Assembly (NCBI GenBank): GCA_963924565.1
Contig: OZ004614.1
Location: 18,414,001 to 18,478,000, forward strand
DNA length: 64,000 nucleotides
Direction: 5' to 3'
DNA from: Ascidiella aspersa
Lineage: Eukaryota
Shown: one piece after another, positions 31,428 to 64,000 of the stretch
Layout: the number at the start of each line of letters is the position of its first letter
How positions within the stretch are numbered: the first letter of the stretch is position 1
Translations under genes and position numbers: made by a program
The notes under the pieces: model-generated
The model's input: only the letters and a program-made list of their open reading frames with translations
Databases searched by the model: none
Told to the model about the DNA's origin: nothing

Positions 31428-34400
31428 TGTATTGAAGCGGTTGATGCTTTATTGCGAGATGCGTAGATCGAATAAAAAGGGTCAGCGCAACACAACACTC
31501 GATTATAAAGCACAACACAAAAAAGGCAAATTGCACGCTTCGCTAAGCGCGCGCCGACACGGAACCATGTACGCCACAGTACCCCAGAAGCGGGCATATA
31601 AAAAGCCGCGTAGCGTTGCGGGGGATGAACGTTGCTGCGTCTTGGTCGTCCTCTGGCCGGAGGTTGCGCGACTGGAACCGGTTTAGTTAAATCGACGTGA
31701 GCCGGTTTCAAGCGGTCGATGGAAATGGTCTGTTGACGACCAACATCTAAAAGGAAGGTTTTGCTGGACGCTTGAAGGACCTTATATGGGCCGCGTCGTA
31801 CGGTTTGGTCAGAGGAGCGCGATGAGTGTCACGGCGTACAAACACGTATGGGCTTATTCCTCAATGTCGACGGGACGGAAATACGAGGGTTGCTGTGACG
31901 CGACATCGGTTGTGGCAACAGCTGTCGGAGACTGTCCTGTAAAGCAGGTAAAATCCTTCATTAGCAATGAATTGACCCGGAATTGTTAAAGGTGCGCCAT
32001 AAACCAACTCAGCGGATGACGCTTTTAAGTCTTCCTTAGGAGCAGTTCTAATGCCCAGCAACACCCAAGGCAACTCGTCCATCCAGTTTGATCCCGTCAA
32101 GCGTGCCATCAATGCGCTCTTCAAATGACGGTGAAAACGCTCCACCAGGCCGTTCGCTTGAGGATGGAATGCTGTCGTGCGGTGGAGGTGAATAATACCC
32201 AATAGTTGGCCTACGGTAGTCCACAGCTCAGACGTGAACTGCGGGCCTCGATCGAGAGCCCGCGCACAGGTGAGTGTGGTAGCGTCTTCCATTGGTATAG
32301 CTTCCGGCCATCGTGAGAATCTGTCGACAATTGTCAAAACATACCTATGGCCTCGACACGGTGGAAGCGGAAGGAATGGACAAATGACCTGGATAGCGCA
32401 TCAGCAACTGTATTTGACTTACCGCTGATGTGTTGGACATCGGTAGTAAACTGGGAAATATAGGAGAGTTGACGTTGCTGACGAGCAGACCACGGATCTA
32501 AAACTTTCTTGAATGCAAAAGTGAGAGGTTTGTGATCAGTATAGGCTGTGAAGTTGCGACCTTCAAGAAAGTAGCGAAAGTGCCTGATTGCTAGGTGTAG
32601 TGCTAACAACTCGCGATCGAAGGCACTGCTGTACCTGGTTTCGGGTTTTCTCAGTTGACGACTGAAAAACGCCAGGGGGGCCCAGCAGCCTTCTTTAAGT
32701 TGTTGGATGACAGCGCCGACGGCAGACTGCGAAGCATCAACTGTGAGCGCGATGCTGGCTTGCCACTCCGGGTGATGCAAAAGCGTTGCGTTAGCGAGTG
32801 CATTCTTTGCTTTGTCGAAAGCTTCCTGAAGAACGCGAGTCCAAACGAGTGACCTCGGCTTGCCGGATAAGGAACCATACAGGGGCTTCATAATGTCTGC
32901 GACATTTGGAATGAACCTGTGATAGAAGTTTATCATACCGCAAAACTCCTGTAAACCCTTGACGGTTTGAGGCACAGGAAAGTTGTTGATTGCGTCAACT
33001 TTCGAAGGCAGAGGTTTGACCCCGTGCTGGTCAACGAAATGACCGAGGAACTCCAGGCTTTCTTCACCGAACTCGCACTTTTGCAGGTTCAAAACAAGAC
33101 CGTGGTCTGAAAGCTGCTGAAAAAGCTGCGTTAAGGGTTGCATATGAGCAGCCTTAGTTGGACTAGCAACAAGAATGTCATCGAGGTAAACATAAATAAA
33201 GTGCAAACCTTGACAAATCGAGTCCATCATCCTCTGAAAAGTTTGCGCGGCATTCTTCAACCCAAACGGAGTTCGAAGAAACTCGAAGAGACCAAATGGC
33301 GTGATGACAGCGGTCTTTGCGATGTCTGCTTCAGCAACTGGAACCTGATGATAGCCTCGTATTAAGTCTATTTTAGAAAATACGGTACAACCAGCCAGAC
33401 GTGCAGTAAAGTCGTGGATATGGGGTATAGAGTAACGATCAGCTTGAGTGGCATCATTGAGGCGACGATAATCGCCACAGGGGCGCCAACCACCCGAGGG
33501 AGGGCTTCTCTACCATGTGGAGAGGTGACGACCATGGGCTGGATGACCGGCGCACTATATATACCTAACTCGAGCATCTTTTGAAATTCAGCCCTAGCTA
33601 ACGATAACTTTTCAGGCGAAAGGCGTCTGACGCGGGAATGTACAGGTTGGCCAGTGATCACAATATAGTGTTGTACGCCATGTTTAGGCAAAGCATCGGA
33701 AAAAACTAGGGATTTTCAGACTAGGAAACCTATCTAATAATCTTTCAAATGGAGAAAGCAACGAATTAAGTGTGTTAAGTTGAGGCGGTGGACAGCGATA
33801 TACTCTTAACGGGCCGGCTGTCTTCGCTATCACAGCCAGCCGGCCTTGTCGTTTCCCTGAAAAGAACACGGTTGGCTGCATTGACGTGCGTCTGCTCCAA
33901 AGCGTCTATGGAAACATATACCAGTAGTTTTATCGCTGTTATTGCGAAATTGCTTACCGCGTTGCACCTTGCTTACAGCAAACTCGTTGCTGCTACTGCG
34001 AGAAAGCCATAAAATGTCTGGCTGCCTTCAGAGCCAATCGACGAAGATATGTGGTATCCTCGTGAGCCAATACTAACCGGATATCCTCAGGCATGTGCTG
34101 CAAAAACAAATGTTCAAAAAGAAAACAAGAACGGTGGTGTCTCCGAGTAGGGCAAGCATCTCGTCCATTAAAACAAGAGGGTTTCTTGTCGCCCAAAGGA
34201 GGCATGTTTAAAAGCTGCGCTGCTCGTTCTTGCTTTGAAAGCGTAAATGACTGCAGCAAGCGTTTCTTAATTGCGTCGTACTTGCCTTCGGCCGGCGGGC
34301 GCTCCAGCAGGTCAATTAAACGTGCTGCAGTTTCTTGGTCGAGCGCAAAAACTATGTAATAGAACTTAGTTGCTGTGTTGGCCAGAACGTAGGAAGAAGC

Positions 34401-34470
34401 TTGATCGAAACGGCGTGTTCAGCTTCCATCTTCGACTTCAAAAGAACGTTTTAAAGTTGCGGGGTTACCA
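31428..34470 (-). mobile_element. Ty3/Gypsy LTR retrotransposon (CsRn1-like), frameshifted gag-pol; 5' LTR missing
   Basis: gag: TKFYYIVFALD...LGDKKPS and CHCC motif CFHRRFG..ARQCSQPC. RT/RNase H ORF 32334-33260 (YLDDILV, DASQSAVGA, YTDHKPL). Integrase 31861-32337 (GLVERFHR). PBS-like TGGTAACCCCG at 34460-34470. Putative 3' LTR 31428-31578. Confidence 0.93.
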
Positions 34471-35686
34471 GTAAAGCGATTATGTTTGTTTATTCGCGTC
34501 ATTAGGGGAAGCGAATAAAGGAGGAAAAGGACGAGAAAAACGGGCGAGGCGTACATTACACAACACGGAAATAATAAATAAATAAAAAGGAAAAGAAAGG
34601 TAATGTGTAATAACAATGGAAAGCGTTGGACAGGATGGGCGGCGGGGGTTAATATCTATAAATATTCGGAGGAAACGTTGCATTTTACGGGAAGGAAAGC
34701 GAGCAGAAAGTGGGCGGTAGAGAGCCCATGCGAATATTACATAAAGTTGAGGTACAATTGAAGAGGGTGCGAGAAAAGGAGTGGATATTTGAAAACCGTG
34801 CTAGGTCTCAACAGGGTATGCAGTGTGACGAGGTTACTAGGGAAAGGACAAAAAAAGGCGCGACATGGCAATATATTGACCACTAGGAGAGCTAGGAAGC
34901 GTTGTGGTGGAAGACCAATAAGTAGACAAAATTAACGAAGGCTTGCGTGGCGATGCTTACTATAAAACGAGGAGGAGTCATATTGAAACAAGCAAACAAG
35001 GTCTTAAATGGCGTAGGTAAATAAATAAACAAAGAAATAAATGGCGATGGATGCTGAAAAGAATAAAAAGAACAATAAGTAGAGAAAGGGTGTTGGTCAG
35101 CCAATGAGAGCTCAAAGTTTGTAGTGTCTAGGGTTCGGGGAGGGGGGTATGTCCCCTGGTTCTTCTCCCTGGATTGGCTATTAAGGAGAGCTTGTGCTAG
35201 TTCTCTCTCATTGGTGGCAGTATGGGTTTTCGCCTCGGACGAGAGCATTTTAGGGGTAATTCTGAATTTTATTGGGGCGCACAATGGAGCTTGGTCTTTT
35301 GATGATTGTTTTGCCTGTTATTTGGGCCTGTTCCGAAAAGAACTTGGACTATTTTTGGGTTGGATATTTAGATTTTATTTTGCCTATTATTTCACCTATC
35401 CCATTAGGACTGGGTGAAAGTGAGGAGGATTTTTGGTAAGGTGGTGCCGGAAAATTTAGTTGTTCTAGGTATTGGAGGGTTAATTTTTTGGGGGGCAGCT
35501 TTGCCTTGTTGGTTTTGGGTGGTCTAAGTGGGTTTTTTATTTGAAATTTACGGGGTTTTTGTTTCCTTATTGTGCGGTTTAAAGTTTTATTGGGTGGGAG
35601 ATTGGCGAGTTGAAATTGTCGTTTATGTTTTAATTTTATTGGGGGTGGGGTGGCAAAGCTGCCGCAGGACGCAACTCACAACGTAC

Positions 35687-38600
35687 CTATTGGGATAGCA
35701 AATTCCTGAGGTCTTGTATTGTTGACATGAATGTTGTGTCTAGCCTATTATGTTCAACGTTGAGTCGTTGTGTAATTCCTCTTTTTATTGCAGATATAAT
35801 TGCTGAAACTGGCCGAATTTGTTTATGTTCGAACTTGATTTTATTTCTGGTTCTCCAGATGTGGTGCCGGGTGAGTGTATTGATGTATACTAGGTGCTCT
35901 GTGTATATTTCAAGGTGGCTGGGTATGTTGAGTCGTGTAGTAATCTCATCAGTGAGCGTGGTGGCAGTGTTGGTGAGTCGGTTGATTAGCTGTTCAATGT
36001 ATTTCCACACTGGCGCCAGTGTGGAACATGTTGAAAAAATGTGGTGCGTGGTTTCTGGCCTACTTCCGCAGAAGAGGCACAAGGTAGCCGGGTCGAGAGA
36101 TATGGAAGAGAATTTGGTGGATACGGGTAAGAGGTCAAATAAAGTTCTATAATTAAACGTTTTTGCCGCGTTAGAGAGGATTGGGTGGTGGACGTTATTC
36201 CAGAGGGTTGTCGGAGCAATGGGACCATCCCTCTGGCTAACGTCGGGGTTGGGGGAGACTAGGCCTAGATAGAGGGTACGGATTGAGCCATGAACGAGTT
36301 GGTCGAAGGAGAAAGAATATTTTTTAACCAGGTTTAAGGCGTGTTTGTAGAAGGGGTTGGGGATAACGGCGTGGGGGTGTGAGTTTCTTAGTCGTAACTT
36401 AAAAAGGTTTGAAAGTTGGAGTCCAATATTATACTCGATCATGGCCAATCCGGGTGTAGTTGGGGTATCGTTTTCTCTATGGCGGCAATAGAAGAAGATA
36501 GACTGCATAAAGAAAAGATCGCAGTAGACGGGAATGTTTGCTACCTTGTATCCCCCCCTATCGAACGGAAGGGCCAGTTGTTGTATTGGAAGGTGCAATC
36601 TACTGTTCCCAGTTATAAAATTACCGACCGCGTCATCTACCCGTTGCCGCAACGACTCGGGGAGTGGATAAACCGTGGCTGTATAGGATATTAATGGCAG
36701 GAATTTAGCCTTCGTGACGATGGATTTGGCGTTCCACGTCATTGCGAACCGGGCATGGCGTTTTATTGTGTCTGTGAGGGTTTTAAAATGTTCGGCCCAG
36801 TTCGCCGTGACGCTCGGCCCAGACCCGATCACGGTCCCGAGTAAACTCAGGTGCGATCGAGTCCATCCGATGGGGGGGAGGGGGCCCTGAGCGCTTCGGG
36901 TGTAGAGGCCTTTGGTCTTGGAGTAGTTCAGAGTTAAACCCGAAGCGTCTCTGAAACGATCTAATTTTTGGAACGCCAATGTCACGGAGTATGGGTGGCA
37001 AAGGGTCAGGGTTGTGTCATCGGCATAACTGGGACACTTGATGCAGTGTCGACCAGGTATGCCGATGCCGCTGACCGACGAGTCGGCCTGAAGGGCCAGT
37101 GAGAAGGGCGTTGCGGCAATCAGGAAGAGGAACAAGCTAAGGGGATCGCCTTGTCTTATTCCCCTTCCAATTGCAAATGGCGCAGTCGGGAACCCGTTAA
37201 CAAGAACAGTAGATTGTGCGTCTGTGTTTATGCTGCGTATTACTCTGATAAAGTGTTCAGGAAAACCCATTTTAGTCATAACACAATAAAGCCATGCGTG
37301 GTCGACCGAGTCGAAGGCCTTCTTGAAGTCTAGGGAGATAAAGTAAGCATCCGTACCCCTCCCCAGCGCGTCATAGTAGAGATCCCTAAGGAGGGTGGTG
37401 GCATCCGATATACGCCGTTTTGGCGCTGCGAATTGGTGGGGGTGGAGGACTCGCTCCAGGATCGCTTTTATCCGAGTGGCCAGGATTTTGGTGTAAATTT
37501 TTAGGTCGGTGTTGAGCAGGGAGATAGGGCGATAGTTTCCTAGGTCCGAGGGATCTTGTTTTTTGTGTAAAAGGGTGAGTGTGCCGAGTTTCATGTCCTC
37601 GGGGATTTGGCCTTGTTCGTGGATTCGGTTCATGACGTCAGTCAGATCCCGACCAATCAGCTCCCAGTACAGAGAATAAAACTCTGTGCTGATGCCGTCC
37701 GGACCGGGGGACTTTCCCGACGCCATTTGCCGAATTGCGTTATGTACTTCCTGGCCCGTGATTGGTCGGGTCAGGGTGTCGTCTAAGGGGTCTAAGCTAG
37801 TAGGGACGTGCGCTAGAAAACTCCGCTGCGCCTCGGCGTCTGTGGGTTGAGTGCGGTACAAGTCCGTGTAAAAGCTGTGGGCGATGTTAAGCATCTCTAC
37901 GTTGTTACTGGTTTTGTTTTGGCTTGTGCCTTGTTTAAGCTCGAGTATGGTTGTGTTCCTACGCTGTTCGGCAAACCGAGCAAAGAAAGCCTTTGTGCCC
38001 CGGTCTCCCCAGTCAAAACCTTGGGCTTGGGATTTTAGAAGTCTGGCGCGGGCAGATTGCCGCTGAAGGGTGCAAAGTTGACGTTTAAGGGTTAGGTAGG
38101 GGGTAAGTAGGGTTGGGTTGTTTGCCAGCGGCCCCCAGAGTGCCGTGACGCCTTCCTGCAGTTGCACATGGTGTTTGTTTCGCTCTACGGCTAGCAATTT
38201 GGAGTGCTTTATGTTAAGGTCTTTTATGCGTTGTTTTATGTGCAGCCACCAGGAGGTTTTATCGTCGAAAAGGGCGGGGTGGAGCGTGCTCCACATTTCC
38301 CACCGCTTTTCGAGTTCCTCCAGGAAAGCTGCGTTGGCGTAGGTGCTAGTATTGTTTTTCCAGTACCCCTTACCCCTGCGGGATCCGGGGACTGTCTCGA
38401 TTTGTAAGGTTACCATGTCGTGGTCCGACTGGCAATTAGGCGGCGTCCCATTTTCCGAAATTGGTTTTATGAGTGCGCTGATATAGAAACGATCTAAGCG
38501 GGACTGTGTGTTGTTAAGTCTACGTGTATAGAATGGCCTATCGCCGTACAACTGCCGAAAGGAGTCTGACAACTGGAGATCGCGGCAAACGTCAATGAGA

Positions 38601-39071
38601 CCTGCCAGGAGCTCGGGATAAGTAGAGGGGGGGGTAAACGATCAAGGCGCGAGTTCTCCACCCCGTTAAAATCGCCCGCCAAAATGGTTGGGTGCCTCGA
38701 ATGCACGTGCACGTACAGCGACCCGAAGAAAGCTCTGCGAGCAGCACTTCCTTCGGTTCGCTGCGGGGCATACACGTTTACGACGTGTATTGTTGAGCCG
38801 AAAAGCTGTATATCGACTGCCAGGACCCGCCCGTCTCCGTCGCCACTACGCGCGCCGAAGCTGAGTGATGGATGCCTAAGCAATATCGCGACCCCGTTCC
38901 TCGCGAGAGGCCTCGACAAGGCCGACCAAAACAGGGCTTTATTGGGTTGCCATTCAACACCCCACGCCATTTCCTCCGCAGGAGAACTGTGCGTCTCCTG
39001 ATGGCCGATCGTTTGGCCGCATCTTTCATTCCCCCGACGTTGAATGTGGTTACTTTAAGGTAAGTAGCCAT
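35687..39071 (-). CDS. Family A ORF2: APE endonuclease, reverse transcriptase and C-terminal zinc knuckle (frameshifts in the endonuclease region)
   Basis: MATYLKVTTFNVGG, ILAGDFN, SRLDRFY, SDHD, GKSPGPDG, YRPISLLNTD, SLDFKKAFDSVDH, GIRQGDPLS, YADD, CLFC..ETTHHIFSTC. ORFs 38778-39071, 38494-38970 and 35687-38572. Confidence 0.95.
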
Positions 39072-39128
39072 GACTACTATTTAGTTTAGGTTAAGCTATC
39101 TATCCTAGGTACATCCTAAGTTGCGTCC

Positions 39129-40499
39129 TTATGCCATGCTTTGCGAAAGCGGCGTGGCCTTCTTCTCGCATTGGGGGCAGACGCTTATGTCTCCCGTGTT
39201 TGAAAAAAAATGGCAGCTGCCGACGCAGCTTTGTAGCCACTGGGGGCAGCCGGTACACTTAATGGCTTTGCCCGCTAGAGGGACTTGGACGGCCACGCCG
39301 CAATCGCAGGTTTCGGTTAGAGTTTCTAGGCGCTGTGCCTTATGGTTAGTTGTACTCTCGTCCGAGCCTGAATAAAACCGCTTAACTGCATCATTTATGT
39401 TGTCGTCGTCCTGATGCTGTTCCCCTCCTGTTGTGTCCGTTTCCGATGTGAATGTGGTTGTAGTTTCGCTTGAGCTGGATTCCGTGGTGCCCGATGTGCC
39501 CGCGTTCACCGCTAAGGCGTCGTTTTCAGTGGTGCCCGCGTTCACCGCTAAGGCGCTGTTTTCTGTTTTGCCCGCGTTCACCGCTAGGGCGCTGTTGCTT
39601 GCTGTGCCCGCGTTCACTGCTAAGGCGTTGTTGTCATTGGACCCCTGTTCACCAGGTGCCGCTTTTTCTTTCCCGCCTTCCTCGCTCTCGCTCGGTGGTT
39701 GGTCGGTTGGCGGGGGGGAGGTTCTCTCAGGCACCTGTTGATGGGAAGGCGGCGGAGGAGGAGGAAGAGGGGGAGTAGGAGGAGGAGGAGGGATGTTGGG
39801 GAGAGGAAGGCCTGGCTTGGGCCATTGTTTCCCGTTGCGTCTGTTGACGGTGGTGTAGCCATCCATGTTGGATGGCCCTGGTTTGGGGGTTGACGTGTGA
39901 TCCGGCGTTGTCAGCTCCTGAGATTTCAGGACCTGGCAGTCGTCCTTGTAGTGGCCGAACTTTCGGCATATAAAGCATTGGGGGGGTTGGCCCGTGTACT
40001 TTGTCGGGAAGGCCAGCCCCTCGACCCGGATCGTTTGCGGGATGGGGCTTCTTTTGAGGTCCGCAGTTCTCATTGTATAAGTGGTGCGGCCGTCGTTTAA
40101 ATGGTTGCGGTCCTTCTGCCGCTTGTAAACTTTGACTTCTCCATGCCGGAAATTCAGTAGGGAGACTATTTCCTGGATCGGAAATCTTGGCGGGACGTGT
40201 GAGACTTCGACCGTAGTAAACTCGCTTTCATACCGCTTGACGGACTGGACCGCTGATTGGCCGGTTAGGCGTATGACCAGGTCATCGGCGGTTTTTTCGT
40301 CGACGCAGGTGAAGTCAGTGAAGCCTCCTCTGCGTTCGACGATGCCTTCCAGGCGGTTGTAGTTGAAGTGCGCCTTCTTCAGCAGTTCGTATATGAAGTT
40401 GCGGGATCTTTTGTCCGGCAGCTTTGCCACTACTTCTGTTTTTCTTTCGAAGATTGTTCGGCTTCTGGCGACAACTTTGTTCCAGGCTGGCTGGGACAT
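39129..40499 (-). CDS. Family A ORF1 (RRM-like region, CCHC knuckle, low-complexity linker, Cys-rich C-terminus)
   Basis: Intact 456 aa ORF upstream of ORF2; CFICRKFGHYKDDC; C-terminal CDC..CTGC..CVGSC..CPQC. Confidence 0.9.
   Translation of the reverse strand: MSQPAWNKVVARSRTIFERKTEVVAKLPDKRSRNFIYELLKKAHFNYNRLEGIVERRGGFTDFTCVDEKTADDLVIRLTGQSAVQSVKRYESEFTTVEVSHVPPRFPIQEIVSLLNFRHGEVKVYKRQKDRNHLNDGRTTYTMRTADLKRSPIPQTIRVEGLAFPTKYTGQPPQCFICRKFGHYKDDCQVLKSQELTTPDHTSTPKPGPSNMDGYTTVNRRNGKQWPKPGLPLPNIPPPPPTPPLPPPPPPSHQQVPERTSPPPTDQPPSESEEGGKEKAAPGEQGSNDNNALAVNAGTASNSALAVNAGKTENSALAVNAGTTENDALAVNAGTSGTTESSSSETTTTFTSETDTTGGEQHQDDDNINDAVKRFYSGSDESTTNHKAQRLETLTETCDCGVAVQVPLAGKAIKCTGCPQWLQSCVGSCHFFSNTGDISVCPQCEKKATPLSQSMA
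39497..39632. repeat. 36-bp coding tandem repeat x4 (ALAVNAG)
   Basis: TGCCCGCGTTCAC(C/T)GCTA(A/G)GGCG with period 36. Confidence 0.95.
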
Positions 40500-40964
40500 T
40501 GCGGGCTGGGTTGAGAAGGTGTGCAGTGGGGTGACTGCAGGTTAAAGGGGAGGATATTTGGTGGCGTCTTATTGGACGGTTGTCCTCAACGCTTAGGTCG
40601 GGTAGTTCTAGCGGACCTTAAAAAAGGCCAGGAAAAGGGTTTTTTCCTTTTGCGCTTGGTAGGATCTGAGGTTGGGGTTTTTTGGGTTGGCCCACTTACC
40701 GTTCCGGCGGCAAAACTCTTGAAAAACCGAGTAATGCGTTTTTTTCCGGCAACGGGGTGGGACGGGTTGCTGGTACTAAGCCTGTTCAGGGAAATCCCTA
40801 CGCTCCAAACCTTCGGGGCTAGGCTGGAGCTTATTCTCTTTTCTTCCTGAATCAGGTAAGTCTGGCAGGATATTGCGCAGATCTTGCTGTTGTGGACGGT
40901 TTGTCGGGTCCTTTCGGAGCTCTGATCTGAAAGACTGACTGCTGACAGCTCTTCGGATATTGTG

Positions 40965-41160
40965 AAGGATAGAGTTCTTCACTTTGTAATAACTACGCCT
41001 CGCCTATCGAAAAACCGCCCGACGGTTGAAAAGCGCGCGCAGTAACACCCAATCGTTTTTTTTCGCGCACTCTCGCACTGCTCCATTGGCGAAAGCGTCG
41101 AACCGTCATTTGCATCTCTTCCGATCTATAAGCGACGAGAGTGGAAAAACACGCCACACT
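40965..41160. promoter_or_regulatory. Orphan H2A/H2B-type divergent histone promoter
   Basis: CCAAT 41049-41053, E2F-type TTTCGCGC 41061-41068, ATTGG 41085-41089, octamer ATTTGCAT 41108-41115 and TATAAG 41127-41132. Octamer followed by TATA is the classic H2B arrangement. It lies between head-to-head elements A1 and B1. Confidence 0.75.
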
Positions 41161-42582
41161 CTTCGTCGTCGAAAGCTACGAAGAACCGATTTCACTCGAG
41201 AAACAAGATACTCGAACATACAAGTGTATGACCCAAATATGTTGTCCAAGCCATGGAGCATGGTTGTTTCCCAGGGGAATCCCCACACCGCCGCAGGGAA
41301 TCCTTCCCTCGTCGCAGCGCCCCACAGGAGGGAGGTCTTCTCCCGTCGTACGGAGGTCGTTGCTAAAATTCCTAGCAAGAGGTCAAGGAACTTCATCTAC
41401 AGCCTCCTAAAACTGGTGTCTTTCGACACCAACAATCTGGAGGGGATAGTCGAACGAAAAGGAGGCTACACCGACTTTACGTGTAAAACTGAACAGCAAG
41501 CCGAAGAGTTGGTCTTCAAGCTGAAGAGCAGACCCGAGGTCGATCTCGCAAGGCGCTATGAGAGCGAATATACCAGCGTGGAAATCTCGCACGTGCCACC
41601 TCGCTTCAACATCGGTACGCTTATGGCGTACATCCAGAAGAACCACGGCACTGCCCTAGAGGCCAGAAAGCTAAAGGACGCCATAGCCGGTCTCCCAGAC
41701 GGGAGAATAAAAGCAGAGGTGCTCACCGAGCACCTGAAACAAAATCCCATCCCGGCAACCATCCGATGCGAAGGACTCACGTTTCCAGTGAGATACTACC
41801 AGCAACCACAGCAGTGCTTTCACTGCAGAGCCTTCGGCCACATCCGGGCAAATTGCCCGACACGCCAGCCCCCATCGCAGCGCACAGCAGACGAGGAACC
41901 CGACCCAGCGACAAACTCAGAGAAGACCCCGGAGAACATGCCAACAGACATCTCGTCGGAGAACGGTGAGAAGACGGAGAAAGAAAGAAGGACAGAGGCG
42001 GCAACATCATCCAGCATAACGGCGGCCACAGCAGTAACAGCAACAGCAGCATCCGGCAACTCAGCGGCAAACGATATCCAACAGCCAGAAGACGACTGAA
42101 CCACCAAACGACAAAGAAGCAGCGGCAACACCCCTCCCGAGAACGACCAAAAGCGTCCAAAAGCAGAAGATGACAGGCTATGCCTGCCGCAGTCCGAGGG
42201 GCCTTCTGTGGACGGGCCAGTGCGTAAATGCCGTGAATGCCTCGAGTGCGACTGCCAAGCTCTCGTGGATTTTCCAGAGCCGGGCATACCGACTGTATGC
42301 GACGCCTGCAAGAGGATCTTCCGCTGGTGCGATGAATGCAATTATGCATACGTGTGGCTTCCCAAAAGCCAGAAGTCTTGCCCCACTTGCGGGACTTTCA
42401 TACCGGAAAGCCTCTCACAAACCCTCCCGGGTTGACAGAGGCGGTCTGGAGCAGGAAATTACATAATCATTGTTTGATTTCAAAGTTTTTATTTGCATAT
42501 TTGTTTTTCGCCTCGCCCGTTTTATTTTCGTTCTTTTTTCTTATTCGTTTTCTTTAATTGATGCGAATAAACCAACATACTC
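41161..42582 (+). mobile_element. Family B ORF1-only non-autonomous Tx1 derivative (copy B1)
   Basis: ORF1 is homologous to family A ORF1 and is followed within ~150 bp by a 3' end (CGCCTCGCCCGTTTT...TTATTCG...GCGAATAAA) homologous to that of family A. No ORF2. Confidence 0.85.
41239..42435 (+). pseudogene. Family B ORF1 with one nonsense codon (42097-42099)
   Basis: MLSKPW...CFHCRAFGHIRANC. The TGA corresponds to TGC in copy B3, and the frame continues into Cys-rich ORF 42208-42435. Confidence 0.85.
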
Positions 42583-42872
42583 AGAAACAAGACACTCGAA
42601 CATACAAGACCCAAATATGATGTCCAAGCCATGGAACATGGCCGTTTCCCAGGGGAATCCCCACACCGCCGCAGGGAATCCTTCCCTCGTCGCAGCGCCC
42701 CGCAGGAGGGAGGAGGTCTTCTCCCGTCGTACGGAGGTCGTTGCTAAACTTCCTAGCAAGAGATCAAGGAACTACATCTACAGCCTCCTAAAACTGGTGT
42801 CTTTCGACACCAACAACCTGGAGGGGATAGTCGAAAGAAAAGGAGGCTACACGGACTTTGCTGAAGAGAGCT
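42583..42872 (+). mobile_element. Tandem second family B copy (B2), 5' part only
   Basis: Near-identical to 41199-41480; deletion junction into family C ORF2. Confidence 0.9.
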
Positions 42873-42875
42873 GAA

Positions 42876-45800
42876 GCTCCGGGTGTAGGTTGTTTCAATT
42901 CTTGTCCCTACGGAGGGTCTTCCTCCGGGGGGGTCGCCATTTTATTTCCTGCGTCCCCACTTTTACCCCTTTAGACATTTTCTCAGATCTCACCGGCAAA
43001 ATTATTTCCTACAATATTAATACTAATATATATATGCCCCGTCCGGTAAAACCAACCACTTAGCCAACAACAAATTTTTCGACAACCTTTACCCTTACGC
43101 AACCTCCCCCCACCCCACCATCCTGGCTGGAGACTTTAATTGCGTTCTCCAGCCCCACCTTGATAAATACCCCCCAGAACCATCCCGTCACCCCCAACAA
43201 ACCCTTAATTACCCTATTAGATACCCTTAACCCTTACGCCAAAACTTTCTCCCGCCGCACCCATAACTCCCAATCCCGCCTTGACCGTTTTTATGTTACC
43301 CCAATATTACCCCCGTTAATCACACCTTCACCCCAACCCCCTTTTCAGACCACGACCTAGTCACCCTCACCCTTGACATCCCCATTTCTCCCCCAGAGGC
43401 TACGGCCTCTGGAAAAACGACATCCGCACCCCCTTACCCACCCCGACTTCCAAATACCACTTTACATTAAATTAAACCGGCTTAAATCAATACAACAGGA
43501 CTATGACCCGCTTAATTTTTGGATTCTAGTCAAAACCCAAATCCCAGAAACAACATTCGACCCTTGCCAAATTACGGGAACAAATGAGTCCCCTTAAAAC
43601 CTTTGCTACTTTCCAAAAATTAAAACGTGAACTCAACCCCAATACTACCTGGAAAAATCAAAACAAGACCTTCTAAAGGCAAAGGTTGATAATATGGAAA
43701 ATAAAAATATATCTAATAAAGCCCTTTATACTCTCGTGTGTTGCCCCAAAAACAAAAAACCCATATCAACGAACTACTGGATGATTTCCATCTCTCCCAT
43801 ACCACCCCCGCCGAACTCTGCCACCTAGCGGAGAAATATTATAAAAACCTATACGACTGCCCCCCAACCCCCCAGACCCAAATTGACCCCTTCCTCCACA
43901 ACCATACCCCAATCCCCGACCAACTCCACCAATCACTCACCCAACCATTTACCCGCCATTAAATTAGCAACATTATTAAAACCTTCCCCACCGGTAAAAC
44001 CCCCGGGCCCGATGGCCTCAGCATTGAGTTTTTTACACTGAATGCTGGGAGAGCTCATCGGGCCCTATCCCACCCCCGCCCTCAATTACGCCTACCTAGC
44101 CCCAACCCTCCCCGCAGACTTTACCCACGGAGCCATAACCCTCATACCGAAAACCCCCGCTGCCAACTATCGCCCCATTTCTCTTCTAAACACAGATCTC
44201 AAAATTCTAAATCAACGCATTAAGCCGCAATTAAAACATTTTCTCTCTCCCCTTCAACACGCACAACCCGGAAAAAATACTTCAACCGCATCAACCCTCA
44301 TCCGCGACCTCTACCACCATGCCACCCAAAACACCCCCCCTCATATTTCATATCCCTTGATTTCAAAAAAGCCTTCGATTCGATCACCCACCCATATCTC
44401 ACCCACATCCTCACCACCCGCAACTTCCCCCAACCCTTCATAAATTACACCCAAACCAGCCAAACCTCAGCCACCTCCGCCATTTTAATAAATGGCTTCC
44501 CCACTAACCCCGTGGCGATCAGAAGAGGTGTGAGGCAAGGCGACCCGCTGAGTCTCACCCTCTTCCTGATCGCCCTTGACCCCCTCCTCAAAAACATCCA
44601 GGACAACCCCTCCATTTCTCCCTCCCCCGCCCCTACCCGCACCCCACCCAAACTCGTCGCTTACGCGGATGATGTTACCCTCACCCTTGCCCACCCCCAC
44701 TCCCTCCCCCCGCTATTCGACAACCGTACCGGCTTGACCCTCAACCCCCTCAAAACGAAGGAATCCCTCCCCCCTCCTCTCCACGACCTCCCCCAAATCG
44801 ACTGGAACCCTCTATCAATATCCCCCCTAAATATACCCATCGGAGACCCCACCCAAATTACTCAAGCTTGGCAATCTTCCATACACAAACTTTAAAAACA
44901 AGATCTCACAAATTACACATCCGTTTCCTAACCTTTGACTCCAAATCCATTCTCTCTAAGACCATCTCCTTCTCCCCAATTTTACTCAACTGGCATCCGT
45001 TTACCCAGCCCGAAACCTTATAAAAAATAAAATTAATTCCAAATTATAACAGTATTTCATCGGCCGCAACCCCCCCATTCCCCTCGACACCCTGGCGGCC
45101 AGTCGCCCCCACGGGGGCTACTCGGTCGCCAACATCCCCCTCTACCTCGACCTCTTCCTTACCCGCATAATAGGCCCCTACCTCAACCACCGCACCCTTG
45201 ATTCATTCCCCCGCTGATACCCAAAATCAAATTTTGGAATACAACCTTCTATCAAAGAAATACGATCTTAGAATAAAAAATAATCTGCCACACACCATGT
45301 TTCCCTCACCATATTATCAACAAATTTGGACTTTAATAACTCAATATAATCCGACATTGACCAAACTCACGTGCCCCAAAATAAAACCCCTCTACCTCCG
45401 CCTCACCATCCCCCAGCAATACTCTAACCCCAACCCCAGCTACACCCCACCCCAAAGCCTAATACTTTTCTTTAACAACTCTATTCGATCCCGGTGCCAA
45501 ATTGAACAGGCCAGACCCTCTTCTCCCCATATTGACCTGTTTGTAACCCTCCTTTAATGACCAACTGACCCCTCCTCTCCCACCAAACTAAATTGTCCAA
45601 ACCCAATGTCAACCCAAAACCTTAGGTATCCGTTCCTACCCCCTTAAATTTTTAAATCTCTTGACTTGTTATTATTGTTTATGCCTGCCTTGTTCTTTTT
45701 TATTTCTCTCGCTTTTAACACTCAGTTATCTTTCGAAATGGGAAACGTATCCCTGAACCATTTGCGCCCCGTAGGACGCCATTTTTGTTTTTTCACCGCC

Positions 45801-46161
45801 ATTTTGTTTTTCATCCGCCATTTTGTTTTTTTTTAATTTTTCAATTCATTTACATAGAGCCTGCTTTGGGCTTCTATTCCACCCCCACCTAAATGTTAGG
45901 CTTTAACAAACCCCGATACGCACATCCTGGGAAAGGGGAGCATCATAGCTTTCCTCTCAAAACGAAAGACCTGCCGCATGCATACTCCTCCTTGTAGGGG
46001 GAGTGAAGGGCAGGTCCCGTCTAACTTCCATACTGGTGTATATTTCACCACCTTCACTCGCCTTTTCTTTTCCGTTATACAATAAATTCAAATAAAGCAA
46101 ACTACACGGGGCAATGATGAGCCCAAACAAACCAAAGGGGGGGTTAGCACATTGCATTGCT
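42876..46161 (+). mobile_element. Family C Tx1 element: degenerate ORF2 and 3' UTR
   Basis: ILAGDFN, SRLDRFY, GKTPGPDG, YRPISLLNTD, GVRQGDPLS and YADD across several frames; conserved 3' modules at 45920-46155. Confidence 0.92.
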
Positions 46162-46174
46162 AAGGCTGTCAATG

Positions 46175-49100
46175 TTCGACTTTTTAACTCGACAAAGCAA
46201 GAAACATGTCAAGACGCGGTTAATAGCAAACGAAAGCTTTTAGAATTGTTTTTCACTGGTAAATGAGAAGGAGAAGAGGCTGCAAGCTTCAGCAGAGGCT
46301 GAACTTTGTCTATAGTGATACAGTTTTCTAAGTGACTATTTTGCTGCTTTTTCCCTGACAAGCAAGCTTTTTCGACGAAAAATTGGATTTATTTCATGAC
46401 CTTATTTACCTGGATTATTTCGACCAGTATCGGAGTACATACGTGTACAGACTACTCACCGAAAGGTTACTTTTGTTATTATATTTCACGTGTATCACGT
46501 GTGTTAACTTCACAACTCTACTAGCGGAGCCGCCATTTTATTAAAATGGCGACCGCGGGCCCAAGCTGGGCCAATATTTGTGCGAAAGATTTTGATGTTA
46601 CCAAGTTTAACGTGTCTCGCAAGGGCGAGTTAGAAATCCACTTTAACCCTCCGCAATCAGGACCTCAGGTGTACGAAGTATTAGAATCGGTTGGCTTCAA
46701 TTATAAACGCTTTCTAGAAAGCTGTATACAAAAACCTAATGGTAAAAGTGTCTTGTGCTGCCATACAGATGAGGAAGCTAGAGACCTTGCATGCAAACTT
46801 GACAAGTTACCGTTTGTCAAATACGCCGAACCTTTCGAAGAGTCAATCATCAAAGTCAAACTTAGCTAGGATTTCTTTTCTGCCAAATTTGCCAAATGCA
46901 CCGGCCACCGAGAAATTGTAGATTTGCGTCAGGTTCATGCAGGAAAGGTGCACCTTGACTTAGACCGGAAAGAGCTTGAAAAAAAGCCTATACCCAAAGA
47001 AATTAAAATGGGGGCCCTCATATGATTGAAGTTTACTATCAAGAGCAACCAGAATGCTGTCGATATTGTCGCAAGCCAGGGCACACCCTCGAAGAGTGTG
47101 ATAAATTAAAAAAGAAAAAGGCAGACAACGAAGATAGAGAGAGAATAAACACCGAAGAGAAAGAAAGGAAGAAAGAAGAGGAAGAAAGAAAAAGGCAAAA
47201 TATGTTGTTAAACATCGCTGACATGCTGAACAAAGATAGAGAAAGGTCTTTAGTTGCAACATCCACAACCCTTCGCGACCCGTCAAAAATTGGAAAAATT
47301 GCCCCCGCAGATTTCTCCTCCCCAGGGGGCCGAAAGCCAAATAGTAGCTCTTCGAGCACATTAAGCTCCACGGAGACAGAGGAGGCTGAGGCAGAAAGCC
47401 TAGGAACAGAAATCGACGGCACTGAAAACCCTGAGCCAAGTCAACCAGACCATAGTGACGCACCCCCATAAGATTCAGAACTCGCCAACAGAAAACGCCC
47501 CTTTGAATTCTCAAGTTTTTCAAATAGAAAAGCACCCTCTCATAGAATGCTCACTATGCAACGGGCTGGGCAGCCATGCTCACCAGTGTCCAAACGAACA
47601 AGGCGACGACCCCCCCAAAGGAAATGCCACAGTTTCATATTGTTGATTCGCCAGCAACCAAGACCTCCCCCCCACTAATGTAAATACCCAGCTCAAATGG
47701 AGTCACACAAGTTTTAATGTAAATGGTCTTAGTGGCCACGCCAAGCGTAATGCAGTTTTTACGTACCTTAAAAGCTTACAGTTTGATATAGTGTTGTTGC
47801 AGGAGACCCACTCGACACCTCAGGTTGAGTCAACCTGGGCTGCCGAGTGGGCTCTGGGTGTAGGTTTTTTCGAATTCTTGTCCCTCCAGAGGGTCTTCCT
47901 CTGGGGGAGTCGCCATTTTATTTCCTGCGTTCCCACTTTACCCCTTTAGATATTTTCTCAGATCTCACCGGTAAAATTATATCCTGTAATATTAATACTC
48001 TAACCCATACCATTCATTTAACCAATATATAATCAATTACTTGGCCAACAACAATTTTTTACGTAACCTCCCCCCACCCACCCCACCATCCTGACTGGAG
48101 ACTTTAACTGCGTTCTCCAGCCCCACCTTGATAAATACCCCCCACAACCATCCCGTCACCCCAACAAATCTTTAATGACCCTGTTAGATACCCTTACCCT
48201 CACCGACACCTTTCGCACCCTTAACCCTTACACCAAAACCTTTTCCCGCCGCACCCATAACTCCCAATCCCGCCTTGACCGTTTTTATTCTACCCCTAAT
48301 ATCACCCCGGTTAACCACACCTTCACGACCTAGTTACCTTGACATACCCATCTCACCCCCCAGAGGCTATGGCCTCTGGAAAAGTGACACCCGTGCCCTT
48401 ACCCACCCCGACTTCCAAATTCCACTTAACATTAAATTAAACCGGCTAAAATCATTACAACAAGACTATAACCCACTTGATTTTTGGATCTTAGTTAAAA
48501 CCCAAGTCGCAAACCTCCATAAAATCATAAGTAAAAAACTTAACATAGAGGGAAATAGCCCAGAAACATTCGGACTCTTGCCAAATTACGGGAACAAATG
48601 AATCCCCTTAACTACCCCCAAACTTTTGCTACTTTCCAAAAATTAAAACATGAACTCAATAAATATTACTTGGAAAAATCAAAACAAGACCTTCTAAAGG
48701 CAAAGGTTGATAATATGGAAAATAAAAATGTATCTAATAAATCCCTCTATACCCGCGTCTTACCGCAAAGCAAACAAACCCACATTAAAGAATTACTGGA
48801 TGACTACCACCTCCCCCACACCACCCCCGCCGAACTCTGCCACCTAGCGGAGAAATACTACAAAAACCTATACGACTGCCCCCCAACCCCCAGACCCAAA
48901 TTGACCCCTTCCTCCACAACCACACCCCCATCCCCGACCAGTCACCCGCCACGAAATTAGAAACATTATTAAAACCTTCCCCACCGGTAAAACCCCCGGG
49001 CCCGATGGCCTCAGCATTGAGTTTTACACTGAATGCTGGGAGCTCATCGGGCCCTATCTCACCCCCGCCCTCAATTACGCCTACCTAGCCCCAACCCTCC

Positions 49101-51499
49101 CCGCAGACTTTACCCACGGAGCCATAACCCTCATACCGAAAACCCCCGCTGCCAACACCCTTGCCAACTATCGCCCCATTTCTCTTCTAAACACAGATCT
49201 CAAAATCCTTAACAAAATTCTAAATCAACGTATCAAGCCGCAATTAAAACATTTTCTCTCTCCCCTTCAACACGCACAACCCGGAAAAAATACTTCAACT
49301 GCATCAATCCTCATCCGACCCAAAATACCCCCCCTCATATTTCATATCCCTTGATTTCAAAAAAGCCTTCGATTCGTTCACCCACCAAAACGTCACCCAC
49401 ATCCTCACCACCCGCAACTTCCCCCCCCCACCCTTCATAAATTACACCTAAACCACCAAAACCTCAGCCACCTCCGCCATTTTATTAAATGGATTCCCCA
49501 CTGACCCCGTGGTGAGACAAGGCGACCCGCTGAGTCTCACCCTCTTCCTGATCTCCCTCGACCCCCTCCTGAAAAACATCCAGGATCTCCCCCGCCCCCG
49601 ACCCGCACCCCACCCAAACTCGTCGCTTACGCGGACGATGTCACCCTAACCCTTGCCCACCCCCACTCCCTCCCCCCGCTTTTTGACACCCTGGCCAAAT
49701 TTGCAACTGTATCCGGCTTGACCCTCAACCCCTTCAAAACGAAGGCTACCTACACCAAATCCCTCCCCCTCCCCTCCACGGCCTCCCCCAAATCGACTGG
49801 AACCCTCTAGCAATATCCCCCCTTAATAACCCCATCGGAGACCCCACCCAAATCACCCAAGCTTGGCAATCTTCCTACACAAACTTTAAAAACAAGATCT
49901 CACAAATCACACATCCGTTTCTAACCTTTGACTCCAAATCCATTCTCTCTAAGACCATTCTCCTCCCCAATTTTACGCAACTGGCATCCGTCTACCCAGC
50001 CCCAAACCTTTTAAAAAATAAAATTAATTCTAAATTATTGCAGTATTTCATTGGCCCCCGCAACCCCCCCATTCCCCTTGACACCCTGGCGGCCAGTCGC
50101 CCCCACGGGGGCTACTCGGTCGCCAACATCCCCCTCTACCTTGACCTCTTCCTCACCCGCATCATTGGCCCCTACTTAACCCACCGCATTCTAGATTCCC
50201 CAGCCGACACCCAAAACCAAATAATTGAATATAATCTCGGAATCCAATTATCCAATAAATATGAACTAAGAATTAAAAATAACCTTCCGCACACAATGTT
50301 TCCCTCACCATATTATCAACAAATTTGGACTTTAATAACTCAATATAATCCGACATTGACTGAAACCTGTAAAATCCCACACCACCCCCAATATACTCTC
50401 CCTAGACCCCAACTGCCCCCTTTGCCTTTCCCGATACGAATCGGACGCCCATTTACTTCACAACTGCACCCAAATCCAACCCCTCCTCACCCATGTTAAA
50501 AACCTTTATTTTAATTTTACATCCTAGCCCACTACCTTTTTTGATTACCATTCCCATATTTATTTTGTCCACCCGCCCCGCTCCCCACTCCCCAACAACG
50601 ACCTCATCACCCTCCTAAATACAATCCTACACCACACCATCTGGAAAACCCGAATTAGCAAAATAATCACCCCTGACCCGCAACCCACCCCACCCCAAAG
50701 CCTAATACTATTTTTTAATAATTCTATTCGATCCCGGTGCCAAATTGAACAGGCCAGACCCTCTTCTCCCCACATTGACCTGTTCGTAAAGCTAACCTCC
50801 CTCCTTTAATTACCAACTGACCCCTCCTCTCCCACCAAACTAAATTGCCCCTGCCCCAGGTCAACCCAAAACCTTAGGCAATTCCTCCAACCTCCCTTCT
50901 AACAATATCTCTCTTTTTATTTTGTTATTGTTTTTGCTTTTGCCTTTTGCCTTTTTATTACTCTCTTGTTTCTGCCCTTAAAAACCTTAGTTAAATGTAG
51001 AGAATTTCGACTCTAAACCCACCGGGTCTCCCAATGCAGCGAGACGCCATTTTGTTTTTAAATTGCCATTTTCGTTCTTTACTGTGTCAATTTTTGAACA
51101 CTTCTATTGTACCGGCTAACCCTATTAAGGCTGTCACACATTCCAACAAGCTCCCTCTGAAACCAATACTAACCTGGTGCTACATTCTCAATTCTTAATA
51201 TGCATATCCTCAAACGAGGGGAGCTACAACATGCAATTCCACACCATTTCTCTATCTAACTTTAGACCTGCTCACGCATACTCCTCTCGCTAGGGGGAGT
51301 GAAGAGTAAACCCGTGCTTCATTAAAAACTCACCCCGAAATTTTCTTTTTCATCGCTCCGTTCGTTTGTTTCCCCGCACCCGCTTAAAATAAATTTACAA
51401 AAATGGGCAATGATGAGCCCAAACCAAAGGGAGGGTTAGCACATTGTTAACCAACCACCCCTGAGGTACCTGAGCCCTCAAGAAAAAAAAAAAAAAAAA
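46175..51499 (+). mobile_element. Family D (C-related) Tx1 element, full length but disrupted, with poly(A) tail and TSD
   Basis: ORF1 46546-~47646 (CRYCRKPGHTLEEC), ORF2 ~47697-50815, poly(A) 51483-51501. AAGGCTGTCAATG occurs at both 46162-46174 and 51500-51512. Confidence 0.93.
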
Positions 51500-51512
51500 A
51501 AGGCTGTCAATG

Positions 51513-55507
<3,995 letters not shown>

Positions 55508-55617
55508 TAGCGAGTTTTTGGGTCGTCGCTCGAAGGTTTGTTATTTGCCAAGTAAAATCCTGCTCACTAACGAACTAGGGGGGTACATTTCAAGGTAGAG
55601 GTAGGTACCAAATGGTT

Positions 55618-55652
55618 CTCTTTCAAACTGTAGGGTGGCTCTGAAAAGAGCC
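55618..55652 (-). terminator. Histone mRNA 3' stem-loop and downstream purine-rich element (HDE)
   Basis: Minus strand AAAC-GGCTCTTTTCAGAGCC-ACCC (stem-loop 55637-55652), followed by AAAGAG. Confidence 0.97.
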
Positions 55653-55679
55653 GTTTTTTGGTGTGAAGCAGTTGTTGCT

Positions 55680-56057
55680 TTAAACTTTCTTTGAGGTCTT
55701 CTTGGGAAGAAGCACGGCCTGGATATTGGGCAGCACACCTCCCTGAGCGATGGTTACACCGCCGAGCAGCTTGTTGAGCTCCTTGTCGTTGCGAATGGCC
55801 AACTGCAAGTGACGGGGGATGATTCTGGTCTTCTTGTTGTCACGGGCTGCGTTGCCAGCCAACTCGAGCACTTCGGCGCTCAGGTACTCGAGCACGGCTG
55901 CCAGGTACACGGGGGCACCGGCACCAACACGCTCCGAGTAGTTGCCGTTGCGCATCAGTCTGTGCACACGACCGACTGGGAACTGCAGGCCAGCTCTCGA
56001 GGAACGGCTCTTCGGCTTTGGCTTTGCTTTACCACCACCTTTACCACGTCCAGACAT
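55680..56057 (-). CDS. H2A: Histone H2A, replication-dependent (intact ORF, promoter displaced, possibly pseudogenising)
   Basis: 125 aa, MSGRGKG...[12 protein letters not shown]...[20 protein letters not shown]; intronless; stem-loop downstream. Confidence 0.97.
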
Positions 56058-59247: not shown

Positions 59248-60387
59248 TCGACACCAACAACCTGGAGGGGATAGTCGAAAGAAAAGGAGGCTACACGGAC
59301 TTTACGTGCAAAACTGAACAGCAAGCTGAAGAGCAGACCCGAAGTCGATCTCGCAAGGCGCTATGAGAGCGAATACACCAGCGTGGAAATCTTGCACGTG
59401 CCACCTCGCTTCAACATCGGTACGCTTATGGCGTACATCCAGAAGAACCACGGCACTGCTCTAGAGGCCAGAAAGCTAAAGGACGCCATAGCCGGTCTCC
59501 CAGACGGGAGAATAAAAGCAGAGGTGCTCACCGAGCACCTGAAACGAAATCCCATCCCGGCAACCATCCGATGCGAAGGACTCACATTTCCAGTGAGGTA
59601 CTTACAACCACAGCAGTGCTTCCACTGCAGAGCCTTCGGCCACATCCGGGCAAATTGCCCGACACGCCAGCCCCCATCGCAGCGCACATCAGACGAGGAA
59701 CCCGACCCAACGGCAAACCTCGTAAACATGGCAGCGGACACCTCGTCAAAAGGCAAAGAGGAGACGCAACAAGTGAAAAAACCAGAAGTGGCAACATCGC
59801 CAAACGCAACAGCAACAACAATCTCCGGCAACTCAGCGGCAACCGACATCCAACAGCCAGAAGACGACTGCACCACCAAACGACAAAGAAGCAGCGGCAA
59901 CACCCCTCCCGAGAACGACCAAAAGCGACCAAAGGCCGGAGATGACAGGCTATACCTGCCACCGTACGAAAAGCCTTCTATCCACAACGAAGGGTGCGAT
60001 TACCTCATCTGCACCTGCACCGGTATGGTGGAATATCCAGAGGTGGTCGCACCGACCGTATGCGGTGAATGTTTGAAGCTCTACCGCATGTGCAATGGAT
60101 GCAATGAAAAGCACACGAGTGGTACCTCGAGAGCCAGAAGCTTTTCCCCAAGTGCAAGACCCCCATAATAGGCTTCCTCTCGCAAACCCTTCCGGGTTAA
60201 CAGGGGTGTGGCCTAGAGTGGGAATCCCGCAGAAAGTCAAATGCGCTATTTTTTGCCTAATTTGCATAATTTCGTTAATTTCAATTATTTTTTTATATTC
60301 ACATTTGTTTTCGTTTCGCCCGTTTTATTTCGTTCTTTTTCTCCCTTATTCGTTTTCTTTAATTGATGCGAATAAACCAACATACTC
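59248..60387 (+). mobile_element. Family B copy B3 (ORF1-only, 5' deleted)
   Basis: ORF 59383-60168 is homologous to B1; same 3' end GCGAATAAACCAACATACTC; no ORF2. Confidence 0.9.
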
Positions 60388-60417
60388 ATGGCTGCAAGCA
60401 AAGGAAAGGCTGTTAAG
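60388..60417 (+). pseudogene. Probable N-terminal codons of histone H2B (MAASKGKAVK), interrupted
   Basis: The ATG directly follows the B 3' end on the octamer side of the divergent unit. SKG-KAVK resembles the H2B tail motif KGSKKAV. Only 10 codons, so this is an inference. Confidence 0.5.
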
Positions 60418-63400: not shown

Positions 63401-64000
63401 ACCCGCTGAGTCTCACCCTTTTCCTGATCGCCCTCGACCCCTTCCTCTAAAACAGCCAGGACAACCCCTCCATTTCTCCCTCTCCCGCCCCTACCCGCAC
63501 CCCACCCAAACTCGTCGCATACGCGGACGATGTTAGCCCCCACTCCCTCCCCCCGCTATTCGACACCTTGGCCAAATTTACAACCGTATCCGGCTTGACC
63601 CTCAACCCCCTCAAAACGAAGGCTACCTATACCAAATCCCTCCCCATCCCCTCCATGATATACCTCAAATCGATTGGAACCCCCTATCCATATCCCCCTT
63701 AAATATACCCATAGGAGACCCCACAAACTTTAAAAACAAGATCTCACAAATTACACATCCGTTTCTAACCTTTGACTCCAAATCCATTCTCTCTAAGACC
63801 ATCCTTCTCCCCAATTTTACTCAACTGGCATCCGTTAACCCAGCCCCAAACCTTAAAAAAAAAAAAATAAAAAATCCCATTCCCCTCGACACCCTGGCGG
63901 CCAGTCGCCCCCATCCCCCTCTACCTCGACCTCTTCCTTACCCGCATAATAGGCCCCTACCTCAACCAACGCACCCTTGATTCCCCCGCTGATACCCAAA
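60418..64000 (+). mobile_element. Family C/D-type Tx1 element (5' UTR, frameshifted ORF1, degenerate ORF2), running off the window
   Basis: ORF1 ~60650-61838 (KDFDMKRLNV.., CRYCKQSGHVLETC); ORF2 from 61914 (MASHLKIATFIVNG, LQETH, GKTPGPDG, YADD). Preceded by AAGGCTGTTAA. Confidence 0.92.

Follow-up and report, generated by a model that had tools for sequence, protein, structure and literature searches.

Family B comprises LINEs that encode ORF1, an RNA-binding protein, but no copying enzyme, and its insertions fall mostly at a single base of the 5' UTR of the histone H2B gene. In our reading, to which we give a probability of roughly two in three, it is an old family mobilised in trans by family A, a LINE of autonomous type that supplies the ORF2, has its 3' tail in common with B and targets H2A.

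The B copies in the window are remnants of one tandem pair

The window analysed here is a stretch of 64,000 nucleotides (C8:18414001-18478000) in a 308-Mb animal genome. From 34.5 kb to its end it holds a decayed histone cluster dense in LINEs, and this block is a repeat of a cluster ~150 kb upstream (copies w2 and w3 of the window equal t4 and t5 there). Intact histone units (H3, divergent H2A/H2B, H1 and H4) lie ~200 kb upstream of the window. The features are listed below by window position and strand; the names CCAAT, octamer and TATA are those that we take to apply to H2A/H2B promoter motifs.

34481-40980, −: family A, autonomous type, facing B head-to-head; its 3' end meets a Gypsy LTR/PBS site
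35687-39071, −: A ORF2, frameshifted in this copy
39129-40499, −: A ORF1
41049-41186, +: H2B side of the host H2A/H2B divergent promoter, with the H2B 5' leader; 96% identity to six intact units
41049-41053, +: CCAAT
41108-41115, +: octamer ATTTGCAT
41127-41131, +: TATA
41156-41186, +: host H2B 5' leader, with an intact H2A/H2B unit as reference
41187-42579, +: B element, copy 1 (w1); limits fixed by the empty allele
41187-41206, +: start of B, with a 20-nt match to the H2A mRNA leader that A carries at its 5' end too
41239-42435, +: B ORF1, copy w1
41815-41856, +: CCHC knuckle within B ORF1
42181-42435, +: exchangeable Cys-rich C-terminal cassette; left edge resolved to a 60-nt window only
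42436-42579, +: 3' UTR without ORF2 or poly(A); last 72 nt common to A
42541-42570, +: predicted terminal hairpin
42580-42582, +: CTC, first H2B target bases downstream of the insertion point
42583-42859, +: 5' remnant of a second, tandem B copy (281-nt piece, 42579-42859)
55611-56057, −: histone H2A gene with 3' stem-loop
56068-59247, −: 3' half of the second A copy, which lies 10 nt ahead of the H2A start codon
59248-60384, +: B copy 2 (w2), with a second cassette allele, frameshifted, 5' part deleted
60385-60414, +: what is left of the H2B target, including its start codon; another inserted LINE follows

The earlier note had placed B at 41161-42582 and 59248-60387. The empty allele, whose two sides are also joined directly by 877 reads of an independent DNA run, sets the limits of copy 1 at 41187-42579; those of copy 2 are 59248-60384. 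The insertion point of copy 1 separates the H2B leader from CTC and lies 11 nt upstream of the H2B start codon, and B ends in a fixed AACATA without an A-tract. Both copies pass directly from ORF1 to the 3' terminus, as the note had observed: the ORF1 stop lies at 42433-42435 in copy 1 and at ~60209 in copy 2, the span from the stop to the end of GCGAATAAA is 136 and 176 nt, respectively, and no ORF2 match was found between stop and terminus in either copy. ORF1 of copy 1 is interrupted by a premature in-frame TGA at 42097-42099; the 392-aa frame is intact in other B copies.

The Cys-rich C-termini of the two copies indeed differ, but what had been taken for strong divergence is a swapped cassette with a sharp edge near 42180, the copies being 91-100% identical before the linker and 60-68% after it. 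Copy 2 is a segmental duplicate of C8:18315783-18317117 (98/98/100% identity, identical flank deletion), and a deletion has removed its 5' part and joined it to the endonuclease region of A. The 281-nt piece that follows copy 1 is of the same type as copy 2 (100% across the 56 nt in common). The two copies are thus duplicated remnants of one tandem pair, without independent insertion. Since they are segmental duplicates that differ by a cassette swap, they are on their own no proof of propagation, and the argument that had been built on them was weak, although the lineage that it proposed is real.

Elsewhere in the window, ARAGORN calls a tRNA-Ala at 9063-9131, beside decayed LINE fragments, which receives no support from Rfam and is probably spurious. 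The DNA of the C-family ORF2 (43000-55000 and 62000-64000) has an extreme C-over-G skew, down to −0.6.

B is a genome-wide family with a conserved ORF1

A DNA search with B gave 27 matches (21 of 21 candidates scored). Sixteen copies were aligned, 14 of them measurable, one cut at its 3' end and one an old copy without a hairpin match. The junction of ORF1 with the 3' end, which the earlier note had proposed to count, is present in 14 of the 16, with the ORF1 stop 115-176 nt from the terminal hairpin, and the ORF2-bearing B copies that it had proposed to look for did not appear: ORF2 matches were found in none of 15 B tails. Even two copies that are 57-68% identical to the young ones have the stop-to-UTR junction, so ORF2 was lost once, long ago; the junction is kept at an N-terminal dS of ~0.8. 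The breakpoint is therefore ancient, and not the recent deletion, with ORF2 in all other copies, that had been named as the alternative.

Selection on ORF1 was measured as dN/dS on codons 1-208. Twelve N-terminal comparisons with dS >0.06 gave values of 0.07-0.20; copy t1 gave 0.13 against the copy on C2, 0.07 against that on C1 and 0.11 against t7 (CI 0.06-0.17; dS 0.78). Four comparisons with dS of 0.02-0.04 gave non-significant values of 0.21-0.8. The duplicate pair w2/t4 gave 0.8, the value for w3/t5 is undefined, and the linker is near neutral. ORF1 is intact in four copies (t1, t2, t3 and that on C2). These values, which the earlier note had suggested obtaining, indicate that ORF1 has been kept functional by purifying selection after the loss of ORF2.

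The Cys-rich cassette occurs in at least three alleles, about 67-75% identical to one another, that assort apart from the N-terminus. The copy on C3 is 95-98% identical to t1 and w1 in front of the cassette edge and 68% behind it; t7 shows 83% identity in front and 91-94% behind. An adaptive reading of the cassette dN/dS of ~1 was dropped because the alleles align poorly. With B ORF1 as query, none of 5016 candidate proteins proved related at E ≤ 0.001, and the Atlas gave CCHC and RRM-like ZCCHC3-type look-alikes only, which serve as a lead.

B copies arise by retrotransposition, mostly at the H2B site

Dispersed B copies are found on C1, C2, C3, C4, C5 and C7. Target duplications flank the copy at C2:871860 (16 bp), a 150-nt mini-copy at C7:2028596 (15 bp) and an old copy on C2 (31 bp, one mismatch), as well as an A copy on C4 (12 bp); none was found at the B copies on C3 and C5 or at a second A copy. 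The B junctions on C2 and C3 recur in contigs of other runs. At C3:25149522-25149660 two bases separate B from the 3' UTR that follows it, which belongs to an older A-like element; a template jump from end to end may explain this.

A pattern built on the terminus gave 32 matches in the genome against 1 in the control, and 30 were examined. The 22 examined termini with at most one mismatch comprise 7 of A type, 13 of B and 2 old ones without assignment. CTC follows 12 of the 13 B termini, and the remaining one, on C2, is followed by ACCGC; the A-type termini are followed by A in all 7 cases and by CTC in none. B is mainly at the H2B CTC and A at H2A, the opposite genes of the divergent pair to which the earlier note had assigned them. 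Neither an A at the H2B site nor a B at the H2A gene was found in the assembly or in the loose ends and joints of reads listed.

B might also be a deletion relic spread mainly by segmental duplication and gene conversion in the histone cluster, as the duplication of the window block from ~150 kb upstream and the recombination evident in the cassette mosaics could suggest. The dispersed copies, two with clean duplications and four with leaders that begin at an mRNA start, and the strong purifying selection between non-duplicate copies argue against it; the duplications and dN/dS values largely refute this explanation, which we find hardly credible. The propagating ORF1-only lineage proposed in the earlier note is borne out by the genome-wide copies, the target duplications and dN/dS.

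The B copy on C2 and the A copy of the window occupy one identical base of a Gypsy LTR/PBS junction. With 40 matches to this junction in 308 Mb, a meeting of the two there by chance is of negligible probability, and both insertions reflect one specificity. Off-target flanks follow the origin of the copy: that on C2, which has an H2A leader, lies before the H2A-like ACCGC; that on C7, with an H2B leader and a t5/t6-type tail, has a flank equal to H2B at 9 of 10 bases, inside the duplication; and that on C5, 1.1% from t1, is followed by CTCCT as is t1. These are three cases only, and a second endonuclease would fit them too. The Gypsy element of the window (31433-34480) has its 5' LTR replaced by the 3' end of A, and the 5' end of A joins the histone promoter, an arrangement that implies a template switch or recombination event associated with the segmental duplication.

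The 5' leaders suggest transcription from host promoters and an origin at H2A

The 20 nt that match the H2A mRNA leader at the start of B are shortly followed by TACAAGTGTA, which A has too. Full-length dispersed copies start ~30 nt behind a histone TATA box; those on C3 and C7 begin with the H2B leader (H2B start region) and those on C1 and C2 with the H2A leader alone, as does the dispersed A on C4. Given these host leaders at full-length 5' ends, B likely has no promoter of its own and would be transcribed together with the host genes from histone promoters. The nesting of the H2A leader inside the H2B leader suggests that B likely descends from an element at the H2A site that moved to H2B. 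The copies on C1 and C2 belong to different sublineages (nearest to t7 and w1, respectively), so H2A-started B RNAs would have arisen twice, either from B copies at H2A, of which none was found, or from template switching. Family C also has nested leaders, with H2B sequence followed by an H4 leader and start codon (window 46162-46220 and C8:18722027), which suggests H4-to-H2B hops resembling that of B.

Family A is the probable source of the ORF2 that copies B

Family A encodes an APE endonuclease, an RT and a zf-RVT domain, with a CCHC motif in ORF1 below Pfam's cut-off, and has a fixed site in a multicopy gene, H2A. The best solved relative of its ORF2 is human L1 ORF2 (E 3e-52), and the nearest named relative is an ascidian pol-like protein (62%), with no named Tx1 reference among 84 homologues. 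At locus L029 one promoter is flanked by A and B copies that are both intact (456 + 1140 aa in A). A and B were found on one promoter in two of three independent B-occupied units with a readable H2A side, but this was discarded as evidence because dead units may simply collect insertions. An older decayed unit at C8:18644390-18647200 likewise has A and a t7-type B head-to-head on one promoter.

The last 72 nt of A and B align with a score of 50, compared with a mean of 24 and a maximum of 35 in 2000 shuffles and with 14-21 for the tails of three other families. Both tails fold into a similar predicted hairpin, so the common 3' hairpin reported in the earlier note stands; none of 10 pairs showed a two-sided compensatory change, and one-sided changes only were seen. 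In the RT search A scored 92-100% and the next sequence ≤51% (138 of 605 candidates scored), and in the endonuclease search A scored 82-100% and the next ≤43% (150 of 293). Of the five closer RT relatives that were read, three terminate in another kind of tail, with poly(A), a fourth is truncated and the fifth is distant; the other autonomous families of the cluster likewise end in poly(A) tails.

ORF1 trees were built as a quick tree of 49 rows and as a tree of 20 rows without frameshifted rows, from which t2, t3, t4, t5, w3, the copy on C1, c4old and duplicates of distant families were omitted. The 20-row tree unites A and B with D, another ORF1-only family (98/100), and A is the closest ORF2-bearing relative. 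The N-terminal domain of B groups with D (93/92), and A+B is not rejected (AU p = 0.10, from 5000 replicates, which is below the advised number).

The common tail, the presence of A and B at one base of the Gypsy site, and the finding of no other close ORF2 among the scored RT and endonuclease candidates all favour A as the driver. Against it stand the absence of any A seen at the H2B site, the little sequence that the H2A and H2B targets share, an old A-like 3' fragment followed by CTG, the grouping of the B N-terminal domain with D, the hairpin without two-sided compensatory change, and the three copies, two of B and one of A, at which no duplication was found. Moreover, the available part of PMC4494074 describes the endonuclease as mostly setting target choice. 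Between A and an unseen partner, the two drivers considered in the earlier note, A is favoured, yet unproven.

If an H2B-specific autonomous sibling of A, unseen or recently lost, placed B at H2B and A carried B only occasionally, as on C2, the clean split, in which the flanks of all 7 A termini start with A and 12 of 13 B termini abut CTC, and the C7 off-target with its H2B-like flank would be expected, and targeting by the endonuclease is the norm in the available parts of PMC7265360 and PMC4494074. There are also old orphan 3' fragments with the A/B tail, one of them the fragment followed by CTG. Read depth over the histone promoter is ~22 times that over B (DNA run X20), or roughly 9-10 B copies and 200 histone units if every read is host, figures that have no single-copy control; most histone units are therefore unassembled, and a partner could hide in an array that is ~20-fold under-assembled. 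B was recently active (the C5 copy is 1.1% from t1, and ORFs are intact), yet the scored RT and endonuclease candidates included no ORF2, not even a dead one, at 51-82% to A. Seven old orphan termini had neither ORF1 nor ORF2 upstream within 10 kb, and the listed sequences upstream of the H2B junction (112 reads) resemble, by eye, B tail variants. We consider such a sibling unlikely.

With A as the driver, the host histone promoter would yield the B RNA, and the ORF2 of A, whose element has the 3' hairpin tail in common with B, would copy it in trans. Lacking poly(A), this RNA would continue past the element into histone sequence, and the resulting flank would pair with the nicked target strand; read-through and pairing are the least certain part of the scheme, and we give them slightly less than even odds. 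One enzyme could thereby serve both kinds of site, CTCC-type for RNAs that started at H2B and ATCGC-type for those that started at H2A. Pairing between the RNA flank and the target has a precedent in SART1Bm and R1Bm (PMC7265360, available part). The H2A start on C1 and C2 could also be the product of template switching, with no B copy at H2A involved. ORF1 is likely retained because it packages the RNA of B and lets B compete for the ORF2 of A. Tentatively, we extend this scheme to RNA-guided target switching, in which the read-through 3' flank would pick the site, one APE-type ORF2 would serve two histone targets, a promoterless passenger would have left H2A for H2B, and the nested leaders of B, D and C would be the record of such hops.

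Other LINEs share the histone genes

Besides B, family D (window 51500-52530) also has ORF1 only; it is likely the sister of B and carries a separate hairpin and poly(A) tail. Its copies, at C1:18339633, C1:21668187, C1:14741179, C3:13125591, C3:34911465, C4:15903809 and C9:11866131, start with an H2B or H4 leader and start codon. A search with the D tail gave 7 matches, and no ORF2-bearing partner was found in the 6 examined. At C4:18895147 (L247) an H2B leader and the first 11 H2B codons precede a decayed B/D-like ORF1 and a short D-like tail, possibly a further ORF1-only sublineage. Family G, the third ORF1-only family, lies at H2B codon 11 (L029:9294 to L030:1150, i.e. C8:18309294-18311150; C8:18312527; C4:13651317), and its 506-aa frame starts at the H2B ATG, giving a MAASKGTKKAV fusion. 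The poly(A) families end in GGGCAATGATG...CTGAGCCC (window 46109, 51405 and ~55167; C8:18270533, 18281215, 18287785, 18311061 and others), ends with a possible resemblance to a box C/D kink-turn that a stem closes. At C8:18265000-18298200 the H1 5' UTR and the region upstream of the H4 TATA box hold autonomous LINEs, of which two have an intact ORF2; the H4-upstream family also occurs near the starts of C3 (C3:23000-27200) and C5 (C5:17500-21700). An entire community of LINEs thus has its niche in histone genes, and three or more of its families are ORF1-only.

In such a community B could be carried in read-through transcripts of the poly(A)-tailed families at H2B codon 11 (C/E type), and B-G-poly(A) units do stand in tandem, with poly(A) joined straight to the 5' end of B. 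Alternatively, ORF1 could serve the host as a LINE restrictor, and selection alone cannot separate a parasite from a domesticated gene. However, dispersed B copies end at the A-type tail and not in poly(A), and B behaves as a multi-copy family in turnover, some members of which are dead. B RNA was almost absent from one RNA run, a weak argument: nearly all of its 92 reads were H2B mRNA and any B bin was covered by ~2 or fewer, which says little about expression. Carriage or domestication appears very improbable, and we retain the copying of B by A as the likely reading.

The pair bears on two questions: by what route a sequence-specific LINE comes to a new target, and what an element without ORF2 gains from keeping ORF1. 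At L029 an intact driver candidate and an intact passenger stand head-to-head, with different targets, the same tail and known off-targets, and B, if it borrows the enzyme of A, gives a rare view of how enzyme-less parasites may switch target. If flank pairing redirects insertion, this would bear on the programming of retrotransposon insertion sites.

Comparison with known elements

The earlier note called B HAL1-like. This is apt for the way it works and not for membership, since B has the fixed AACATA end without poly(A), whereas HAL1 has a poly(A) tail. In the available parts of PMC5786205 and PMC5753468, HAL1 (L1 clade), HeT-A (Jockey) and Ag-Sponge (CR1) are the bipartite non-autonomous LINEs in which ORF1 is present. 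Like these, B consists only of ORF1 and the 3' end of an autonomous LINE and propagates as a family: ORF1 is followed by a LINE 3' end, with the tail common to A, ORF1 is maintained by selection, and independent insertions carry duplications. Co-assembly of ORF1p with the proteins of the partner has been proposed for this class (PMC5786205, available part). Unlike all three, as far as those sources describe them, B targets a sequence-specific site in a protein-coding multicopy gene, has host histone leaders and no poly(A), and has a main target unlike that of its likely driver.

HeT-A, which occurs with TART and TAHRE at Drosophila telomeres, and B are both ORF1-only, targeted and arranged in head-to-tail tandems, with a debated driver and a conserved ORF1 (PMC5537684, available part). 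According to the same part, HeT-A has its own promoter in the 3'/5' UTR, is added to chromosome ends and shares the target of its drivers. B, in contrast, occupies internal histone and dispersed sites and apparently uses a host promoter, and shows neither telomere-only addition nor a promoter in its own UTRs.

Mutsu and Dewa are target-specific LINEs of the Tx1 clade, which family A resembles. As A does, Tx1L, Keno, Kibi and Koshi of this clade combine APE, RT and zf-RVT with a CCHC ORF1 and a fixed site in a multicopy gene (PMC4494074, available part). The targets given there are snRNA genes, microsatellites and a transposon, and the word 'histone' is absent from that paper. The target of A is a histone gene, and its likeness to the clade is by domain content and type of target. 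The available parts of PMC6136364 and PMC4455052 describe no histone-specific element. In open-access text we found no histone-targeted or Tx1-derived ORF1-only element, a scope outside which Repbase Reports lie, so that absence from print is not established; in the same literature no ORF1-only passenger with a histone target differing from that of its driver was found.

The closest parallel to the proposed pairing is that of R1Bm and SART1Bm, APE-type elements in which downstream target sequence on the RNA aids accurate priming (PMC7265360, available part). There, pairing improves accuracy at the element's own endonuclease site, whereas the pairing proposed for B would redirect insertion to a different gene.
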